DNA from: a phage | Length of the DNA stretch: 64,000 nt | Sequence record: PZ445437.1 | Direction: 5' to 3' (one strand) | Shown here: one piece after another, positions 560 to 45,683 of the stretch | Layout: each line of letters begins with the position of its first letter | Position numbering within the stretch: position 1 is the stretch's first letter | Notes under the pieces: model-generated | What the model was told of the DNA's origin: nothing | The model's database searches: none | What the model saw: only the letters and a program-made list of their open reading frames with translations | Position numbers and translations under genes: made by a program

Positions 560-892
560 TTATTTTACTACTTTCCAATGCTGCATGTCAAGTTTACCAA
601 CTTTTTTCATCTTCTCAATTAAGCGTTCTGCACGTTGGCGAGCTGTAACATAATGCCATTCGCCTAATTCATTTTGTTCAATTTTTCCAACGATTACTGT
701 ATTCAATTCATAAATCCAACCAGTAAAGAAATTATGAACTTGAATTGTAAAGGTGAAATCTGTTCCCATACCTTCTGTTGTTTCTACTTCAATAATATCA
801 CCTTCAACTGCCATTAAGAACCACATAGTTTCATTATATTTACCATTGAAGCATTTAGTTTTAACTGCAGCGTTCAGATTAATCGTTTTCAT
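560..892 (-). CDS. hypothetical protein (110 aa)
   Basis: ORF track; co-oriented with neighbours. Confidence 0.6.
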   Translation of the reverse strand: MKTINLNAAVKTKCFNGKYNETMWFLMAVEGDIIEVETTEGMGTDFTFTIQVHNFFTGWIYELNTVIVGKIEQNELGEWHYVTARQRAERLIEKMKKVGKLDMQHWKVVK

Positions 893-973
893 TTTATTCT
901 CCTTTGTTTGTGTAAGATAATACTATCACAAAGGAACTATACTGTAAACAACTTTATGCAATCTTTGGAAAAT

Positions 974-997
974 AAAAAAGGACTCCCGAAGGAGTCC
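974..997 (-). terminator. rho-independent terminator
   Basis: Hairpin GGACTCC-TTCG-GGAGTCC followed by T-run in minus sense, directly after stop of ORF ending at 1003. Confidence 0.6.
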
Positions 998-1002
998 TCA
1001 AC

Positions 1003-1179
1003 TTATGCTTTCTGCTTACCAAAACGAGAAGCATCATCTCGAAGAACCGCACGTGCTCGGCGCATGATCTTCTCAACAGTTTGATTGATACGAGAGTTCG
1101 ACCCACGCTTGTAACCAGCGCGTTTAGAATCACCAACTTTCTTTTCAACTGCTTTCTTTGCTTTAACTTGTTTTGCCAT
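1003..1179 (-). CDS. small basic protein (about 58 aa; ORF extends to 1221 with alternative start)
   Basis: ORF track 1003..1221; internal Met (MAKQVKAKK...) preceded by AAGAGA; lysine/arginine rich. Confidence 0.5.
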   Translation of the reverse strand: MAKQVKAKKAVEKKVGDSKRAGYKRGSNSRINQTVEKIMRRARAVLRDDASRFGKQKA

Positions 1180-1468: not shown

Positions 1469-1717
1469 TTACTTCAATGTTACCACAAAGTGACGAACTG
1501 CTTTTCGTGCAGCAGAAGCCAGAGGCTTAGCATACTTAAGTTCATCTTTTTCCTGAAGCTCAGCAGCTAATGCAGTTTGAGCAGGATTCAGATGTTTGAA
1601 ATAACGCAGGATTTCAAGAGCTTCGGCTTCAACATCAATAGATGCGCCATAGTTTTCGTGACCATTATTCCATGCGTTTCGTTGCAGTTCAAGAGCGTGT
1701 TGTAATTGTTTAATCAT
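1469..1717 (-). CDS. rIII: rIII lysis-inhibition accessory protein (82 aa)
   Basis: Length and sequence match my memory of T4 rIII; position downstream of gene 31. Confidence 0.8.
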   Translation of the reverse strand: MIKQLQHALELQRNAWNNGHENYGASIDVEAEALEILRYFKHLNPAQTALAAELQEKDELKYAKPLASAARKAVRHFVVTLK

Positions 1718-1843
1718 TTAAAAATTCTCGTTAGAGATTAAAACTCGGTAGTCACGTTCTTCTGAATTTCATCTTCTTTCGACAGATCTCTCAGTTGTAG
1801 ACTACCACATAGAATTGAAACTCAATTCATATTATTATTTATA

Positions 1844-2179
1844 TCACTTATAAAGACACGGAATAGCTTTATAGTGACAAGTAACGAATTTTTGTTTAAT
1901 TTCTTTTGGCTGCTTAAGACCCAGAGCTACAAAAGGATGCGGAACATTTCGAATTTGACCAACTGGAAGAGAAGTCAAATCGCCAACTTCGCAGAAACCT
2001 TCAGGAACATCAGGACCAACAGAGTGAACTACACACAGTTCAGGAACTTCACCTTGAACACGTTTACCGATAATAAGTCCTGATTCTGTAACTTCTTCAT
2101 CACCGGCTTGTGCAGGTTCAGAAACTAAAATAACATATTCACCGACAGCACGAATTGGTAGCTGTTGTACTTCAGACAT
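1844..2179 (-). CDS. 31: gp31 co-chaperonin (GroES analogue), 111 aa
   Basis: Protein starts [30 protein letters not shown]..., recognised as T4 gp31; length 111 aa. Confidence 0.92.
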
Positions 2180-8925: not shown

Positions 8926-9428
8926 TTAAAAGTATTTTTTAAAACTCATCATAACTTTATCATCAACATCATTATCAATCTGTGCAACAAGGTAAGATGA
9001 CAGTTCTACTTCTTGTGGCGCGGATTGAACATTATCAGAATTAAGATATTCACGAATCCAAGGATATGGATGTTTAACCGGAGCATCGGTAATTGGGCAT
9101 GGAAGACCACACTGTTTCATACGAGATACAGTTAAGTAATCAATAAAGCTCCACATGCTATTTGTATTTAATCCAGGAACATCGCCATCTTTAAATAAAT
9201 GAACTGCCCAATCTTTTTCTTGGCGGTTAACTTCCATAAAAATATCAACTGCTTCTTGTTCACACTCTTTGGCAATTTTAACCCATTCATCGCCGTCAGT
9301 GCCAAGTTGAAGTTGACGAATAATATATTGGGTGCCTTTAAGGTGAAGCTGTTCATCACGTGCAATGAACTTCATAATCTTGGCATTACCTTCCATGATT
9401 TCCATGTTCTTATGGAAGTTAAAGGTAC
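8926..9428 (-). CDS. nrdB: ribonucleotide reductase small subunit, exon 2
   Basis: Frame encodes TFNFHKNMEIMEGNAKIMKFIARDEQLH (R2 iron-ligand region); no in-frame ATG upstream (track used TTG); joined to exon 1 by inferred splice. Confidence 0.8.
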
Positions 9429-9563
9429 CGTATGTTCGATTGAGCTCGCTAATTCTCAACCCGTTCTCTTATGAACTGCTGCATGTTACCATGCAGTCCA
9501 GACTATATCACAATCCCGGAGGGATTCTCCCCATTTCGAGTCGCTTGACCCTACGTCCGAAGA

Positions 9564-10373
9564 CTAGTCGTTGAACCTTGTTTTGCAATTGTCGCCGTGC
9601 CATCGTTTATATGTTGATGGTGATAAATCTTTCTTACCACAATATGGACAATTCAATTGAATTCTATTTGGATTTAATTTACATCTGTCATTATGTTTTA
9701 GATAAAATCCAGGACCTTTACCAATGTGACCACAGAAATCACATGTGATTTCTTTTTGTGCAGGATGGGTCCCGTTCTTAACCATTTCTAATGTTTTTGC
9801 TGATGTTCTTTTCTTATGGTCTTCTGATAAGAAATGATGTGAACCGTCATTTACCCGTTTTGATTGAGTTTCTGACTGCATTTTACCACCGCAAAATACA
9901 TGAGTACCTTCTTTTATAGCTGCAATATTGCGTTCTTTAACTTTTGCAATATGCTCAGCTTGTTGAAAATTATGTATACCTAATGCAACTCTATTTAAAT
10001 TAGATTTACGCTGTATTTCACCATCTAAAAGATGAAATGTACCATTTTCTATCTTAGATTTAATAGAGGCAATATTTTTAGCTCGTACTTCAGGGATATT
10101 AAAAATCTGGATTTCTCTAGATTTTGCGGCTTTAGAAGCTAATTCAGAAATTTCTTCAGGAGAATATTTCATTCTAAGCTTTATAGCATGACAAGCCTGG
10201 TAATCTTTTTGAGCTAAATGTATATCATAATGTTCCTGTATAGAAAGGCACATCAAATTATCTAAATCATTATTTTCACGGTTACCGTCTTTATGATGGA
10301 TTTCGTATGTTCTTCCATCAGAATCTTTAGGTATAGGTCCGTTAGCATCTATCCAAATTTTTCTATAGTTCAA
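9564..10373 (-). CDS. intron-encoded HNH homing endonuclease (I-TevIII-like), 269 aa, apparent TTG start
   Basis: EIHHKDGNRENNDLDNLMCLSIQEHYDIH HNH motif plus C-terminal CxxC...CxxC zinc finger; lies wholly inside the inferred intron. Confidence 0.85.
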   Translation of the reverse strand: MNYRKIWIDANGPIPKDSDGRTYEIHHKDGNRENNDLDNLMCLSIQEHYDIHLAQKDYQACHAIKLRMKYSPEEISELASKAAKSREIQIFNIPEVRAKNIASIKSKIENGTFHLLDGEIQRKSNLNRVALGIHNFQQAEHIAKVKERNIAAIKEGTHVFCGGKMQSETQSKRVNDGSHHFLSEDHKKRTSAKTLEMVKNGTHPAQKEITCDFCGHIGKGPGFYLKHNDRCKLNPNRIQLNCPYCGKKDLSPSTYKRWHGDNCKTRFND

Positions 10374-10400
10374 TTGTGCATCCTCTTAAAAGTATAATCA

Positions 10401-10408
10401 TATTTATA
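10401..10408 (-). promoter_or_regulatory. late promoter TATAAATA upstream of intron endonuclease
   Basis: Minus-sense TATAAATA about 28 nt upstream of the ORF start, followed by AAGAGGA. Confidence 0.4.
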
Positions 10409-10517
10409 TTATACTAATTAAAGGTGCAAGCAAAACCTTGGCTGCTAGTTTTCCATAAAGGACTTTCCAGCAATTAAAGGAGTTTTCGATAAACGTTACC
10501 GTTTAAAGGCGCATTTT

Positions 10518-11193
10518 ACGCAAAAGATACATAAAAACGAATAGCTTCCAATGCGTTGATTGCATGGAGGCAAAGGTAAAGAGATTTCATTAAAGCACGT
10601 TTAGCTTCGGCTTCTTGTTTAATAGCTCGGTTTAAACGAAAGACAGCATCAGGAGATTCTTTAGCTAGTTCTACAAATTCTTTAGCGTTTTCCCAATAAC
10701 GAGTTTTAATCAGAACATCATCATAATAACGTCCAATGGATTCAGCACGTTTCATAATAGCTTCATCTAATACAATTTCATCAAATACCTTCGATGGATC
10801 AGTATAAAGATTTCGCATGATATGTGTATATGAACGGCTGTGAATAGTTTCACTAAAAGTCCATGTAGCAACCCATGTATCAAGGCTTGGGTCTGAAATT
10901 AACGACATAAGTACAGCAGACGGCGCACGACCCTGAATGCTATCCAAAAGTGATTGATACTTCAGATTATTAGTAAAAATATTTTGCTGATACTGAGGAA
11001 GCTTATTAAACTGTGCAGCATCCATCATCAAGTTTACTTCTTCAGGACGCCAGAAAAATGATAATTGCTTTTCGGTTAAATCTTCAAAAACTTTATGGCG
11101 TTGAATATCATAACGCGCAATACCAAGACCTGAACCAAAAAACATAGGTTCTTTTAAAACATCAACTGGATTTGTATTAAAAACTGTGCTCAT
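10518..11193 (-). CDS. nrdB: ribonucleotide reductase small subunit, exon 1
   Basis: N-terminal R2 sequence ending ...LEAIRFYVSFA then stop that is the first intron nucleotide. Confidence 0.8.
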
Positions 11194-11244
11194 AAATTTT
11201 CCACTTAGTTAATAGATAGTGACTCGTCCATGAGTCAAATTATA

Positions 11245-13509
11245 TCATAATTTACAGGATGAACAATCTTCAGCTTTTGGAGTTTCTATTTCATAATCAT
11301 CAGTACCAGAACCATCACGGGTATTATGATAATAGAAATTTTTTCCGCCAAAATACCAAAAATACAAAAGGTCATCAATCATTATTGACATTGGAACCTT
11401 TCCTTTTGGAAAAATCTGTGGGTCATAATATGTATTCGCTGAAGCTGATTGACATACCCATTTCAGCATAATAGCTACCTGCGTAAGATAAGGTTTATTA
11501 CCTTTCTTAGCTAATTTCCATGTATAATCATAGAGGTCTATGTTATGCTCAATATTGGGCACGACTTGATTAAAGGAGCCCTCTTTTGATTCTTTAACAG
11601 AGACTGGTCCACGTGGAGGCTCGATACCGTTTGTACTGTTAGAAACTTGGGAAGATGACTCACATGGCATAAGTGCTGATAATGTGCTATTACGGATGCC
11701 AAAGAGCTTAAGGTCTTCCCGCAGCGACGACCAGTCACAAACGTATTTTGGAGCTGCGATTTGGTCAATCTTTTTATTGTACCAGTCGATAGGTAATTCG
11801 CCTCGAGACCAACGAGTGTCTGAATAATATTCGCAAGGTCCTTTTTCTTTGGCGAGCTTAATGGATGCTTTAATGAGTCCATACTGTAATCTCTCAAATA
11901 GTTCATGTGTTAAATCGTTAGCATCTTCATAAGAAGCAAAGTTACTTGCCAGCCAAGCTGCATAGTTAGTAACACCTACACCAAGGTTTCGACGCTTTTT
12001 AGCTTTTTCTGCTTCAGGAACTGGATATCCTTGGTAATCCAAAAGATTATCAAGAGCACGAACTTGAACTTCTGCTAATTCATTAATTTTATCTTGGTCT
12101 TGCCAATCGAAGTTATCCAGCACAAATGCAGAGAGAGTGCACAATCCAATTTCAGCATCAGGGCTATTCACATCATTTGTTGGAATAGCAATTTCACAGC
12201 ACAAGTTACTCTGACGAATAGGTGCCTTTTCACGAATAAACGGAGTATAGTTATTCGTATTATCAATGAACTGCACATAAATCCTTGCTGTTCCTGAGCG
12301 TTCAGTCATGAGCAATTCAAATAGTTCACGGGCTTTAATGCGCTTTTTACGAATATTAGGGTCTTTTTCTGCTGCTTCGTATAATTCACGGAAACGGTCT
12401 TGGTCTTTAAAATAAGAATAATAAAGCTCGCCACCCATTTCATGCGGACTGAACAAAGTAATGTAATCGTTCTTTCCGAATCGTTCCATCATCAAATCAT
12501 TCAGCTGAACACCATAATCCATATGACGAATGCGGTTTTCTTCTACGCCTTTGTTATTTTTCAAAACGAGAAGATTTTCAACTTCCAAATGCCAAATAGG
12601 ATAATAAGCAGTAGCAGCGCCGCCACGAATTCCACCCTGTGAGCATGATTTAACTGCAGTCTGAAAATGTTTCCAAAAAGGAATAACACCAGTATGACGT
12701 ACTTCACCCATGCCAATCTTAGAACCTTCGGCACGAATCATACCAACATTAATACCAATTCCAGCGCGTTTAGAGATATATTCAACAATTGAAGCGGAAG
12801 CCTTATTGATAGACTTCAATGAATCACCTGCCTCAATAACAACGCATGAACTAAACTGTCGAGTCGGAGTACGACAACCAGCCATAATAGGAGTTGGCAA
12901 TGAAATCTGTCGAGTAGATACTGCTTCATAAAAACGAATAACGTGTTTTAATCTATCAACAGGTTCATCTTGATGCAAGGCCATTCCAATAGTCATAAAT
13001 GCAAACTGTGGAGTTTCATAAATTTGACCAGTGGTTTTATCTTTAACTAGATATTTTTCTTTTAATTGCATCGCCCCGGAATAAGTAAATTCCATATCAC
13101 GCTCGTGCTTAATTTTTGATTCTAAAAATGTAATTTCTTCTGCTGAATATTTTGACAATAATTCAGGGTCATATTTACCTGCATTTACACAATAAGAAAT
13201 ATGGTCAATAAATGAACGCGGTTCATACTGCCCATAAACATGCTTACGAAGAGCAAACATTAAACAACGTGCAGCTACATATTGGTAATCAGGCTCTTCA
13301 ACCGAAATAGAATTCGCAGCGGCCTTAATGACAATAGTCTGAATATCATCAGTTGTCATTCCATCACGGAGATAAGATTTAATATTTTCATATAATTCAT
13401 AAGGATCTACTGATGTTCCTTCAGCTGCCCAAGATAAAACTTTAATAATTTTTTGTGGGTCAAAGCTCTGAGAAACACCACTACTTTTGATAACATTAAT
13501 TAATTGCAT
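11245..13509 (-). CDS. nrdA: ribonucleotide reductase large subunit (754 aa)
   Basis: Class I RNR alpha: ATP-cone N-terminus, NLCCEI active-site cysteine region; length equals T4 NrdA. Confidence 0.95.
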   Translation of the reverse strand: MQLINVIKSSGVSQSFDPQKIIKVLSWAAEGTSVDPYELYENIKSYLRDGMTTDDIQTIVIKAAANSISVEEPDYQYVAARCLMFALRKHVYGQYEPRSFIDHISYCVNAGKYDPELLSKYSAEEITFLESKIKHERDMEFTYSGAMQLKEKYLVKDKTTGQIYETPQFAFMTIGMALHQDEPVDRLKHVIRFYEAVSTRQISLPTPIMAGCRTPTRQFSSCVVIEAGDSLKSINKASASIVEYISKRAGIGINVGMIRAEGSKIGMGEVRHTGVIPFWKHFQTAVKSCSQGGIRGGAATAYYPIWHLEVENLLVLKNNKGVEENRIRHMDYGVQLNDLMMERFGKNDYITLFSPHEMGGELYYSYFKDQDRFRELYEAAEKDPNIRKKRIKARELFELLMTERSGTARIYVQFIDNTNNYTPFIREKAPIRQSNLCCEIAIPTNDVNSPDAEIGLCTLSAFVLDNFDWQDQDKINELAEVQVRALDNLLDYQGYPVPEAEKAKKRRNLGVGVTNYAAWLASNFASYEDANDLTHELFERLQYGLIKASIKLAKEKGPCEYYSDTRWSRGELPIDWYNKKIDQIAAPKYVCDWSSLREDLKLFGIRNSTLSALMPCESSSQVSNSTNGIEPPRGPVSVKESKEGSFNQVVPNIEHNIDLYDYTWKLAKKGNKPYLTQVAIMLKWVCQSASANTYYDPQIFPKGKVPMSIMIDDLLYFWYFGGKNFYYHNTRDGSGTDDYEIETPKAEDCSSCKL

Positions 13510-13826
13510 AAGTCCTCAACTTGAAAATCGTCTTTAAACAATCGGTTAACTATATGAGCTATTATATCACCATGACACGGCTTTGGTTTACATGTGCATC
13601 CTAGCCTCATTCCACGTAAAGGCTCTAAATGTGCTTTAGTTATTTCTCCGGATTTAATTCGACGTATAAAATCTTTTTTGAATAATTCAATGGCAGCCTC
13701 CCGGCTGCCAGCATCTTTACCGACGTAATTTCCCCAAAATGTACCACGGTGAATATTAACATCAAAGTCGGATTTATATTTATTCACTACCCGGCATAGA
13801 CGGCCCGCGCGGTTGTAGGTGTTCAT
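13500..13826 (-). CDS. hypothetical Cys-containing protein (108 aa)
   Basis: ORF track; between nrdA and td. Confidence 0.55.
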
Positions 13827-14055
13827 ATTGTTCTTCCGTTAAAACAGTAATATCGTAGTAACAGTCAGAAGAAGTTTTAACTGTGGAAATTTTATTATCA
13901 AAATACTCACGAGTCATTTTATGAGTATAGTATTTTTTACCATAAATGGTAATAGGCTGTTCTGGTCCTGGAACTTCTAACTCGCTTGGGTTAGGAAGTG
14001 TAAAAAGAACAACGCCAGAAGTATCTTTAAATCGTAAAATCATACATCCTCGCAA
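13780..14055 (-). CDS. hypothetical protein (91 aa; start may be downstream Met)
   Basis: ORF track; 47-nt overlap with next ORF suggests one start is mis-set. Confidence 0.5.
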
Positions 14056-14063
14056 TAATAAAA

Positions 14064-14924
14064 TTACACCGCCATTTTTCCTTTAATTGGCAGATGAGAT
14101 ACATAGTTGTTAAGAACAAAATTATGAGGCTTTGCAAATTGACTCAACCAAAATACCTGCGATTCTGTGTCCCATTCATCAAATTCATCTGGAAATTTTA
14201 ATTGTAATTCGCATAAATCCATAGGTTCACGACGTAAAATTTCTTTACATTGTTCTACGTGATTCATATAGATATGAGTATTACCACCAGAAAATATCAA
14301 ATCTCCAGGAATAAGATTACACATTTTAGCTACAATATGAACTAACGTAGCATATGATGCAATATTAAATGGAAGACCGAGGAAAACATCTACCGAACGT
14401 TGATACCACTGCAAATCTAAATAGCCATTACGCACATTAAACTGATAGAACATATGACAAGGCGGTAATGCCATATATTTAAGTTCAGCTGGATTCCACG
14501 CAGAAACAATTTGACGCCTATCATTTGGCAGTTTTTTAATACGATCAACAACTTCTATAATTTGGTCTACACCGCCAAAATCACGCCACTGTTTTCCATA
14601 AATTGGACCAAGTTCACCACTATGGTATCCTAAATCTTTTGCCTGATTTTCGTAATTTTCATCCCAAACTGTTTTGCCTTGGATTAACGAATCGTGTTGA
14701 ATTAATCGTAAATCATTGACATTTGTGCTTCCCGATAAAAACCATATTAGCTCAGCAATGCATGCATTCCAGGCGAGCTTCTTAGTTGTTACTGCAGGAA
14801 AACCTTTGGTTAAATCCCATCGTAATTTAGTACCGAACAAAGCAATTGTTCCTGTGCCCGTTCGGTCATCGGTTTCATAGCCATTTTCAAAAATGTCTTT
14901 AATTAAATCTTGGTATTGTTTCAT
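14064..14924 (-). CDS. td: thymidylate synthase, uninterrupted (286 aa)
   Basis: Continuous ORF with ThyA motifs (active-site PPCH, DLGPIYG); no intron. Confidence 0.92.
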
Positions 14925-43862: not shown

Positions 43863-45683
43863 CTACTGGCTCATCCATTCTTTACGAAGGTCAGCATTAT
43901 CTCCCATGAGCATTTCAAAAAGCTCTTTCCAGTTCTCAGGAAGTTTAACAACATCATATACTGGGTTTTGAATCATCTCACGATATTCAGATTTTTCCAA
44001 AGAGCCAAGTCCCTTAATATAACGGATGCTATGTTTAGGTAGAGCATCTTTGGCACTCTCATATTCAGCGACTGTATAAAACCATTCTTGTTTTTTACCG
44101 ACCTGAGCGATGATTACAGGAGTTTTGACAAAGCGAATTCGTCCTTGCTCAAACAATTCTGGCCAATTACTAAAAAACCCGAGCAGAGAAGGATAAATGC
44201 TTCCTAGACCATCATGGTCAGCATCAGTCATAATAGCAATATTATGATAATTCAAGTTTTCAGCTTTTTCACCAAGAACTAATCCAGTGATTGCGCAAAT
44301 ATCAAATAGTTCTTTATTTTTAAGCATATCAGCATATGACATACCCCAACTGTTGAGAACTTTACCACGCAATGGATAACCACCATGAAGTTCTTTATCA
44401 CGAACATCAATAAGATATCCGATAGCAGAATCACCCTCAGTCAAGAAAAGAGTAGTATCAGCATCTTTACCGCAAAGATTCGCTTTGATATGTTTATGAA
44501 CCTTAGCTTTAGAAGCCTTTTTAGCTGCTTTAGTTTCTGCTGCTTTTTCTGCCGCCAATTTACGAGCCAAAGCAGCTTCAATAATCGGCATTAGAATTGC
44601 TTCATTATTTAGAATAGCACGTGAAATCTTTTTAGCATCAAGTTGAATATGACTACGGATTTCACCAAATGGAGAAGTCAAACGCTCTTTAGTTTGAGAA
44701 TCAAATCGCATGTTTTTCATATCACGGACAAACATAACGATAGTCAAACATTCTTTGACACGTGCTTTAGTTACATCAATTTTGAACTTACGTTTGATTT
44801 GTGGAATAAGGTCTTCACAAATATCATCCATAACACAGTCAATGTGATGGCCACCATTCTTAGTATGAATGTTATTGACGTATGTTAATTGACGAAAACC
44901 ATCTGGTGAACGACCAACCGCAATAGAACAATTTTCTTGTTCTTGAACGATAGCATGTTCATCATACTGTCGTGCGTATTTCTTAAAATTACCCTGAACC
45001 TTTTTACCATTAAAGGTAAATTGAATATCAGGATAAACAACAGCAAGTGTCTGGAGACGATCCAGTGTAATGTCAAGATAAACTTGGGACAGCTCATTAG
45101 TTTCAAATGACATAAAATCTGGAATGAAAGTAACACGAGTTCCTTTCCATTTTCCAGGAATAGTTTCCCAGGATTTATTTTCCATGCCATTTGAACAACG
45201 AACTACAATATTATTTTGACCATCGCCAGTTTCACCGACAAACATCACAGAAAAAATGTTAGTTAAACTAGAACCAACACCATTCATACCACCGGTGACA
45301 CGTTCTTTATCATCACCAAAGTTACCACCCGCTTTTGGAATAGTCCAAGCAGCAACTGGACCAGGAATTTCTTCACCGGTAGGTGTTTTAACCATCGCTT
45401 GTGGAATACCACGACCGTTATCTTCAACTGTTACTTGATTGTTTTTGATAGTAACATTAATTTTATTTGCGAATTTAAACTTAGTACGAATACCTTCATC
45501 TACTGAGTTATCGATAATTTCATCAATAAGCTTAACAAGACCAGGTACATACTGAACACTTTCCCATTTACCAAACAGAAAGCGCTCATGCATTTCATTA
45601 GCAGAAGAGCCAATATACATGCCGCTACGCTTTTTGATATGTTCAATATCGCTCAGAATTTTAATTTCATTCTTAATCATCAC
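43863..45683 (-). CDS. 39: DNA topoisomerase II large (ATPase) subunit, unsplit gene 39 (606 aa)
   Basis: GyrB-like GHKL ATPase plus TOPRIM region in one continuous ORF; equals T4 gp39 plus gp60 fused. Confidence 0.92.
   Translation of the reverse strand: MMIKNEIKILSDIEHIKKRSGMYIGSSANEMHERFLFGKWESVQYVPGLVKLIDEIIDNSVDEGIRTKFKFANKINVTIKNNQVTVEDNGRGIPQAMVKTPTGEEIPGPVAAWTIPKAGGNFGDDKERVTGGMNGVGSSLTNIFSVMFVGETGDGQNNIVVRCSNGMENKSWETIPGKWKGTRVTFIPDFMSFETNELSQVYLDITLDRLQTLAVVYPDIQFTFNGKKVQGNFKKYARQYDEHAIVQEQENCSIAVGRSPDGFRQLTYVNNIHTKNGGHHIDCVMDDICEDLIPQIKRKFKIDVTKARVKECLTIVMFVRDMKNMRFDSQTKERLTSPFGEIRSHIQLDAKKISRAILNNEAILMPIIEAALARKLAAEKAAETKAAKKASKAKVHKHIKANLCGKDADTTLFLTEGDSAIGYLIDVRDKELHGGYPLRGKVLNSWGMSYADMLKNKELFDICAITGLVLGEKAENLNYHNIAIMTDADHDGLGSIYPSLLGFFSNWPELFEQGRIRFVKTPVIIAQVGKKQEWFYTVAEYESAKDALPKHSIRYIKGLGSLEKSEYREMIQNPVYDVVKLPENWKELFEMLMGDNADLRKEWMSQ

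Follow-up and report, generated by a model that had tools for sequence, protein, structure and literature searches.

We report here that the interrupted nrdB gene of a phage (sequence record PZ445437.1) almost certainly holds the full-length, endonuclease-proficient T-even nrdB group I intron, in the form first described in RB3. The DNA analyzed is a stretch of 64,000 nt, referred to as the window, in which the region of interest occupies positions 8926..11193 on the minus strand. A sequence-only reading of the window had proposed that nrdB is split by a group I intron of about 1.1 kb with an intact HNH endonuclease, and the 1089-nt insert, its set of helices and the presence of I-TevIII bear this out. 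We document the anatomy and boundaries of the locus and the conservation of its structure and of its residues. The kind of intron and endonuclease, their mechanism and their arrangement were all known before, and nothing in them is new; the RB3-type configuration has been published (PMC1865063, PMC2988022) and is frequent among Tequatrovirus genomes. The value of the locus as a discovery is small: the intron in nrdB, its full-length version in RB3, the biochemistry of I-TevIII and the control by late promoter and hairpin all appeared in print between 1991 and 2010.

The locus lies in a T4-like (Tequatrovirus) block of minus-strand genes, td, nrdA.2, nrdA.1, nrdA, nrdB, denA, rnlA and alc, an order taken from the list of ORFs and from the colinear annotated genomes of RB3, WilhelmHis and T4. 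Over the 2268-nt region, identity is 98.2% to phage WilhelmHis and 97.3% to RB3, and at least 80% of the whole region is covered in 77 phage records. Taken apart, the nrdB exons share 98.2% identity with their best-matching phage, and the intron reaches 99.8% with other phages. The spacer between nrdA and nrdB, put at about 50 bp in the earlier reading, measures 51 nt. The main features are these:

8926..9428, minus strand: nrdB exon 2, 503 nt including the stop
9429..10517, minus strand: group I intron, IA2-type, 1089 nt, with its final G (G9429)
9564..10373, minus strand: predicted I-TevIII homing endonuclease ORF, 269 aa, 810 nt, UUG start, in the P6a loop
10518..11193, minus strand: nrdB exon 1, 676 nt, ending in U; holds codons 1-225 and base 1 of Cys226
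11244..11194, minus strand: nrdA-nrdB spacer, 51 nt, without mobE or nrdB.1 in the ORF list

Three minus-strand ORFs mark the locus, one of 225 aa (10516..11193), one of 269 aa that starts at TTG (9564..10373) and one of 177 aa (8926..9459), as expected from the claim that nrdB fragments of 225 and 177 aa flank a 269-aa ORF. Unspliced, the frame of exon 1 reads on into GCG TAA, so that a stop stands straight after ...RFYVSFA, where it had been placed. Joining T10518 to G9428 yields 676 + 503 = 1179 nt and 392 aa, the same joining (after the U of the stop, onto about 9428) and the same exon total as in the sequence-only reading; the intron interrupts codon Cys226 past its first base (T/GT). The joined product reads ...AIRFYVSFA-C-TFNFHKNMEIMEGNAK... 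(in short form, ...RFYVSFA-C-TFNFHKNMEIMEG...), and the predicted junction of the spliced RNA, with a slash at the joint, is ...UUUGCGU/GUACCUUU.... This junction was placed by a separate alignment of the window with the intron-less allele of phage Solly, which reads ...TTTCGCATGTACCTTT... across the same point. The boundaries are unambiguous because the Solly allele is colinear across the junction. The spliced junction sequence is present in one place, with at least 80% coverage, in 145 phage records.

The conceptually spliced protein aligns contiguously to NrdB proteins, a comparison proposed together with the splice site. It is identical to the product of the uninterrupted 1179-nt nrdB of Solly at 383 of 392 positions (98%), without gaps, and it aligns to E. 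coli R2 (7ai8) in one stretch over residues 3-388 (E=1.5e-127), the junction being colinear (VSFACTFNF vs VSFACSFAF). Exon 1 matches the N-terminal part of the Pfam family Ribonuc_red_sm (PF00268; profile positions 9-142) and exon 2 its C-terminal part (171-271). The counterparts of the E. coli R2 iron ligands E204 and E238/H241 are E216 and E251/H254 in the alignment, and the split codon 226 falls between E216 and E251/H254. By its ferritin-like fold sequence with di-iron ligand motifs, the predicted spliced product belongs to the class Ia ribonucleotide reductase beta subunits (NrdB/R2).

The insert can be drawn as a complete group I intron whose core is divided by the endonuclease ORF. Its parts are listed here, in the order of the RNA:

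10430..10521, minus strand: 5' core, with P1, P2, the 5' strand of P3, P4-P5, and the 5' strands of P6 and P6a
10521..10518 with 10512..10509, minus strand: P1, GCGU/GCGC, 4 pairs, invariant in 6 sequences
10504..10491, minus strand: P2, three compensatory pairs
10482..10477, minus strand: 5' strand of P3, in the 5' core
10472..10443, minus strand: P4-P5, in the 5' core
10442..10430, minus strand: 5' strands of P6 and P6a, in the 5' core
9438..9586, minus strand: 3' core, with P6a'/P6', P7, P7.1, P7.2, P3', P8, P9, P9.1 and P9.2
9586..9575, minus strand: P6a'/P6', in the 3' core
9569..9565 with 9505..9501, minus strand: P7, in the 3' core, part of the P3/P7 pseudoknot
9564..9538, minus strand: P7.1 and P7.2, GUC-UUCG-GAC and GGGUC-AAGC-GACUC
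9532..9527, minus strand: P3', in the 3' core
9526..9512, minus strand: P8, in the 3' core
9496..9479, minus strand: P9, one compensatory pair
9476..9463, minus strand: P9.1, in the 3' core
9461..9438, minus strand: P9.2, two compensatory pairs

These helices were drawn by hand on the introns of the window, RB3, S16 and HY03 after deletion of the ORF, cut at PD112's own deletion end points, and aligned with the naturally short introns of PD112 and DCP80. The resulting six-intron alignment holds 88 pairs in 16 helices, namely 14 ribozyme helices (P1-P9.2) and two segments of the hairpin at the ribosome-binding site (17 pairs). Standard pairs fill 99.8% of its cells (88 pairs, six introns), against 37-44% in controls with a slid 3' partner. 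Seven pairs are compensatory (P2 has three of them, P9.2 two, and P7.2 and P9 one each) and the slid controls have none, in a sample made up of six closely related introns only. The change in P7.2 is from U-A to C-G. The core helices P3-P8, with the P3/P7 pseudoknot, are 100% paired and invariant in the six introns; the covariation comes from peripheral helices, and the invariant catalytic core neither supports nor weakens it. In P1, the exon-terminal U10518 pairs with G10512 as a U.G wobble. The sequences of J6/7-P7 (UCAACGACUA) and J8/7-P7' (GAUAUAGUC) agree with the Rfam consensus. Subgroup IA2, in the scheme of Michel and Westhof from 1990, is distinguished by P7.1 and P7.2 between P7 and P3', and the window intron has both helices at this place. 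Against the reading stand the short P1, with only 4 pairs, and the outcome of a search for a P10 helix joining exon 2 to the guide region, which gave nothing convincing. The T4 nrdB intron has been described as self-splicing (PMC2790892), and by analogy the window intron is probably a self-splicing group I ribozyme as well.

In the covariance-model search that had been proposed as a check (Rfam Intron_gpI, RF00028), the window falls short of expectation. At gathering scores there was no intron match anywhere in it. In E-value mode the model aligns to 9479..9719 with 35.6 bits (E=4.3e-7), below the gathering score of 50, and the alignment is convincing for the 3' half only (J6/7-P7, P3', P8, P7' and P9). 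The 5' half is forced into the ORF sequence, and the assignment of P1-P6 from this match was rejected. The RB3 and T4 nrdB loci likewise give no match at gathering scores, whereas the natural ORF-less intron of PD112, 304 nt long and with about 97% identity to the window over the core that both have, matches the entire model with 68.6 bits; we therefore do not read the miss as evidence against an intron. The window is missed because the 810-nt ORF occupies the P6a loop. That phage introns bearing ORFs escape the Rfam gathering score calls for caution in scans of phage genomes.

The ORF in that loop is, by its sequence, I-TevIII and appears to be an intact homing endonuclease with an HNH nuclease at the N terminus. 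A comparison with I-TevIII had been suggested, and 266 of the 269 residues are identical to the RB3 protein; the differences are D23Y, D246G and A265T, of which Y23 and T265 are common to other phages. Pfam finds an HNH_3 domain (E=6e-13), and the HNH residues H26, H27, N39 and H48 are all kept, with the same numbering as in RB3. In RB3 I-TevIII, the alanine mutants H26A, H27A, N39A and H48A lose cleavage (Robbins et al. 2007, PMC1865063). The same work gives the zinc-finger motif as CX2CX12-13HX3C and shows that the pairs C211/C214 and C242/C245 bind zinc and are required for DNA binding (PMC1865063). Two such fingers lie at the C terminus of the window protein, C211-x2-C214-x12-H227-x3-C231 and C242-x2-C245-x13-H259-x3-C263, so that the claimed HNH motif and zinc finger are both found, the latter in duplicate, with their residues conserved. 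The final nine codons of the ORF overlap P6a', P6', J6/7 and P7, and in P6a the A265T polymorphism shows as either a U.G or a U-A pair.

The UUG start that had been assigned to this ORF was upheld. The UUG at 10373 is the TTG that opens the CDS in RB3 record X59078, with which the ORF is colinear, and the agreement in residue numbering confirms this codon as the start of published I-TevIII. An in-frame TAA lies five codons upstream. It had also been stated that the ORF has no in-frame AUG, which holds for its 5' end but not overall: codon 41 is an AUG in frame, the earliest in the ORF, and starting there would delete the catalytic H26, H27 and N39. Annotation is inconsistent among phages, the WilhelmHis endonuclease, for example, being begun at the internal Met41 (229 aa). 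Proper annotation of nrdB consists of one joined CDS together with an intron-encoded I-TevIII starting at UUG, and many public records are wrong.

Signals that may govern expression of the ORF lie immediately upstream of it:

10401..10408, minus strand: TATAAATA, sequence of the T4 late-promoter consensus, in the hairpin loop
10377..10428, minus strand: Shine-Dalgarno hairpin, with AGAGG (10386..10382) paired with CCUUU (10424..10420)
10404..10433, minus strand: operator-like copy of the homing site, 21/30 identical, overlapping the late promoter

The motif AAGAGGA is read at 10387..10381, with the UUG (10373) 7 nt past it, precisely the spacing given before; the late promoter that had been placed about 28 nt upstream of the start was also found, with 27 nt separating TATAAATA from the UUG. 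In T4, middle and late promoters of the intron ORFs were mapped experimentally, and a late promoter combined with a hairpin that hides the ribosome-binding site is a published arrangement (PMC2988022). The window hairpin has a minimum free energy of -17.9 kcal/mol (z=-3.76; none of 200 shuffles was as stable), and its 17 pairs are conserved in the six introns. By contrast, an RNA that begins at 10395, about where late transcription is expected to start, is without the 5' arm and is unstructured around the Shine-Dalgarno sequence (-3.1 kcal/mol, z=+1.05). Autorepression by I-TevIII through a homing-site-like operator over the promoter has been proposed (PMC2988022). Apart from the site itself, no stretch on either strand of the window matches the homing-site 30-mer better than positions 10433..10404 do, though their 21/30 lies only slightly above a background of 20/30; this stretch might conceivably serve as such an operator. 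A scan of the region for sigma-70 promoters returned 13 sites against 11.2 expected, which is background level, and was set aside as uninformative for T4 late promoters.

For splicing, cleavage, homing and the timing of expression in the PZ445437.1 phage we infer the following course from what has been published for T4 and RB3. The nrdB pre-mRNA would fold into the group I ribozyme, and exogenous guanosine would attack after U10518; the freed exon 1 would then attack after the terminal G9429, ligating the exons within Cys226 and yielding the 392-aa NrdB. A break made by I-TevIII in an intron-less nrdB would be repaired by copying the intron into that gene. On early and middle transcripts that read through the intron, the hairpin would hide the Shine-Dalgarno sequence. 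Late transcripts from TATAAATA would be without the 5' arm of the hairpin, because the promoter sits in its loop, and could be translated from the UUG. The hairpin on early and middle RNA and the late promoter in its loop would therefore delay expression of I-TevIII to late infection.

It is possible in principle that the intron splices while its copy of I-TevIII is inactive or barely expressed, leaving the intron immobile on its own, as in T4. We consider this unlikely. Among the six ORF-carrying sequences compared, G246, which adjoins the zinc ligand C245, is found in the window only, the residue being D in RB3, WilhelmHis, T4, S16 and HY03; the start codon is UUG; even the purified RB3 enzyme is weakly active (PMC1865063); and the locus has no mobE to mobilize the intron in trans. 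However, all 269 codons are intact and the catalytic and zinc residues tested in RB3 are conserved. Finger 1 has a glycine at the equivalent position (C214-G215), the active RB3 gene likewise begins with UUG, and the remaining differences from RB3, Y23 and T265, also occur in other phages.

Far less probable, in our view, is that nrdB is dead, disrupted by a free-standing HNH endonuclease cassette with nothing being spliced. Such a reading would fit the many database records that annotate two nrdB fragments and a "hypothetical protein", as well as the lack of an Rfam match at the gathering score in the window. Yet a complete group I core with compensatory changes flanks the ORF, and it differs by one mismatch in 598 nt from the T4 intron, which has been described as self-splicing. 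The exons are evidently constrained, with 98% protein identity to intact NrdB and an undamaged frame, and the exon-terminal U and the intron-terminal G are both present. Least credible of all, and close to negligible, is an assembly chimera of an intron-bearing and an intron-less phage. Nothing specific points to it beyond the closest relatives of exons (98.2% identical) and intron (99.8%) being different phages, and such mosaicism is expected from homing with co-conversion; moreover, 77 independent records, in which at least 80% of the 2268 nt is covered, show this arrangement in one contiguous piece.

The RB3 nrdB intron with I-TevIII (Eddy and Gold 1991, record X59078; Robbins et al. 2007, PMC1865063) agrees with the window in gene, insertion point, 269-codon ORF, UUG start, promoter, Shine-Dalgarno hairpin and core helices. 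The two introns are 98.9% identical, with 11 substitutions and two single-base indels; a compensatory pair in P9 and the three amino acid changes are among these differences. RB3 carries mobE between nrdA and nrdB, whereas the window does not. A search with just the intron found 80% or more of it in 84 phage records, some of which also lack mobE; AV119 and G2285 match best, at 99.8%, and identities to RB3, AV119 and G2285 are 98.9-99.8%. Full-length introns, such as those of AV119, G2285, WilhelmHis, HY03 and S16, range from 99.8% to 89% identity over the 1089 nt, and the other full-length nrdB introns of Tequatrovirus and Gelderlandvirus differ from that of the window by point changes only. 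T4-type introns cover 54-56% of the window intron and ORF-less forms 28%. WilhelmHis resembles the window in combining the full intron with a 51-nt nrdA-nrdB spacer that lacks mobE; a spacer of this length is also found in PD112 and Solly.

Beyond nrdB, the T4 introns in td (encoding I-TevI) and nrdD (encoding I-TevII) are likewise of the IA2 type, reside in genes of nucleotide metabolism and have their ORFs looped out of the core (PMC2988022). Expression of these ORFs is gated by a late promoter and a hairpin at the ribosome-binding site, an arrangement also present in the window (PMC2988022). The enzymes differ, I-TevI and I-TevII belonging to the GIY-YIG family and I-TevIII being an HNH enzyme that cuts as a dimer.

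The nrdB intron of T4 itself (598 nt) has a single mismatch to the window in the shared 598 nt. All variants that set T4 apart from RB3 are present in the window: the shorter P5, the C in the P8 loop, a G-C pair in P9, and a 3' end reading ...CAUACG. The segment lost by T4 corresponds to the following:

9819..10309, minus strand: 491 nt, between the direct repeats GAAGAACATA and GAAGACCATA

These repeats of 10 nt match at 9 of 10 positions and bound the 491-nt deletion of T4 exactly. With this segment gone, T4 is without the HNH motif, its reading frame is shifted and its I-TevIII is defective. Between its nrdA and nrdB, T4 has mobE and nrdB.1, neither of which is present in the window's 51-nt spacer; the truncation of T4 I-TevIII and the position of mobE, both asserted in the sequence-only reading, are confirmed by the T4 record. 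There, mobE mobilizes the dead nrdB intron in trans (Wilson & Edgell, PMC2790892). We judge the chances to be even that the window intron corresponds to the T4 nrdB intron without its deletion, and not to an RB3 allele, a suggestion that rests on one mismatch in 598 nt to T4 against 11 substitutions and two indels to RB3. If this is correct, the two introns would form a natural test pair for asking whether T4 tolerated losing I-TevIII because mobilization had passed to mobE. A presumably live I-TevIII without mobE would be the natural state complementary to T4's dead intron with mobE, and the combination of a T4-type core, an intact endonuclease and no mobE would make the PZ445437.1 phage a convenient natural control for models of homing in cis and in trans.

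The 3' domain of the nrdB intron, from P7' through P9.2 (window 9509..9431; intron nt 1009..1087), has matches in the unannotated DNA of unrelated phages, with 84-96% identity over 50-80 nt. In all four of the loci inspected (L010-L013, from four comparison phage records), a seemingly split gene has its 3' fragment just downstream of the match, and in three of these an endonuclease ORF lies between the halves.

Split-looking genes with a match to the 3' domain of the nrdB intron
td, Pseudomonas phage PspYZU05: endonuclease ORF between the halves
structural-gene region, Pectobacterium phage Slant: endonuclease ORF between the halves
DNA polymerase gene, Klebsiella phage NDO71: endonuclease ORF between the halves
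nrdA, Vibrio phage S4-7: the fourth match, upstream of the 3' fragment

The four loci probably represent sister group I introns that have gone unannotated.

The nrdB intron itself occurs in shortened forms. In T4, the 491-nt deletion (window 10309..9819) has a 10-nt direct repeat at either end, GAAGAACATA and GAAGACCATA, identical at 9 of 10 positions, which suggests a loss by slippage or mediated by microhomology. Phages PD112, BYEP01 and DCP80 possess nrdB introns of about 304 nt that naturally lack an ORF, at the following positions in two of them.

ORF-less nrdB intron loci
1634..1903, PD112 (L003)
801..1106, DCP80 (L007)

By comparison to the window, the PD112 intron has lost exactly 785 nt (window 10377..9593), flanked by two copies of ACAATTG, one across the UUG start of the endonuclease I-TevIII and the other directly before P6a'. 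The promoter and the Shine-Dalgarno hairpin are retained in PD112 as an orphan. At the start of I-TevIII in the window, we also observed an out-of-frame AUG, the A of which doubles as the final nucleotide of AAGAGGA, the Shine-Dalgarno sequence. This AUG begins a mini-ORF of three codons, AUG CAC AAU UGA (10381..10370, minus strand), with a stop that overlaps the UUG start (AAUUGA).

Public records annotate the nrdB locus inconsistently. Many present nrdB as two separate CDS and not as a join, and some name the endonuclease ORF "hypothetical protein". In phage WilhelmHis (L002, 4442..5131), the endonuclease is begun at the internal Met41, giving 229 amino acids without H26, H27 and N39.

The 51-nt nrdA-nrdB spacer contains a 6-bp hairpin, TGACTC-ATGGAC-GAGTCA (11237..11220, minus strand), which is not followed by a T-run. 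On the other side of nrdA, two small ORFs with a 47-nt overlap separate it from td.

Genes between nrdA and td, and two genes that are split in T4
13500..13826, minus strand, nrdA.1 homologue (Pfam DUF4326)
13780..14055, minus strand, nrdA.2 homologue (Pfam DUF5496)
14064..14924, minus strand, td (thymidylate synthase), 286 amino acids, unbroken
43863..45683, minus strand, GyrB-like topoisomerase subunit, one 606-amino-acid ORF

The td ORF spans the whole NCBIfam model without a break, and the td intron and I-TevI, both present in T4, are therefore absent from the window phage, which nevertheless carries a live nrdB intron. In T4, the topoisomerase gene exists as two parts, 39 and 60, which are separated by mobA and the translational bypass element. 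By contrast, this split appears to be absent from the window phage, in which a single GyrB-like ORF spans the whole model.
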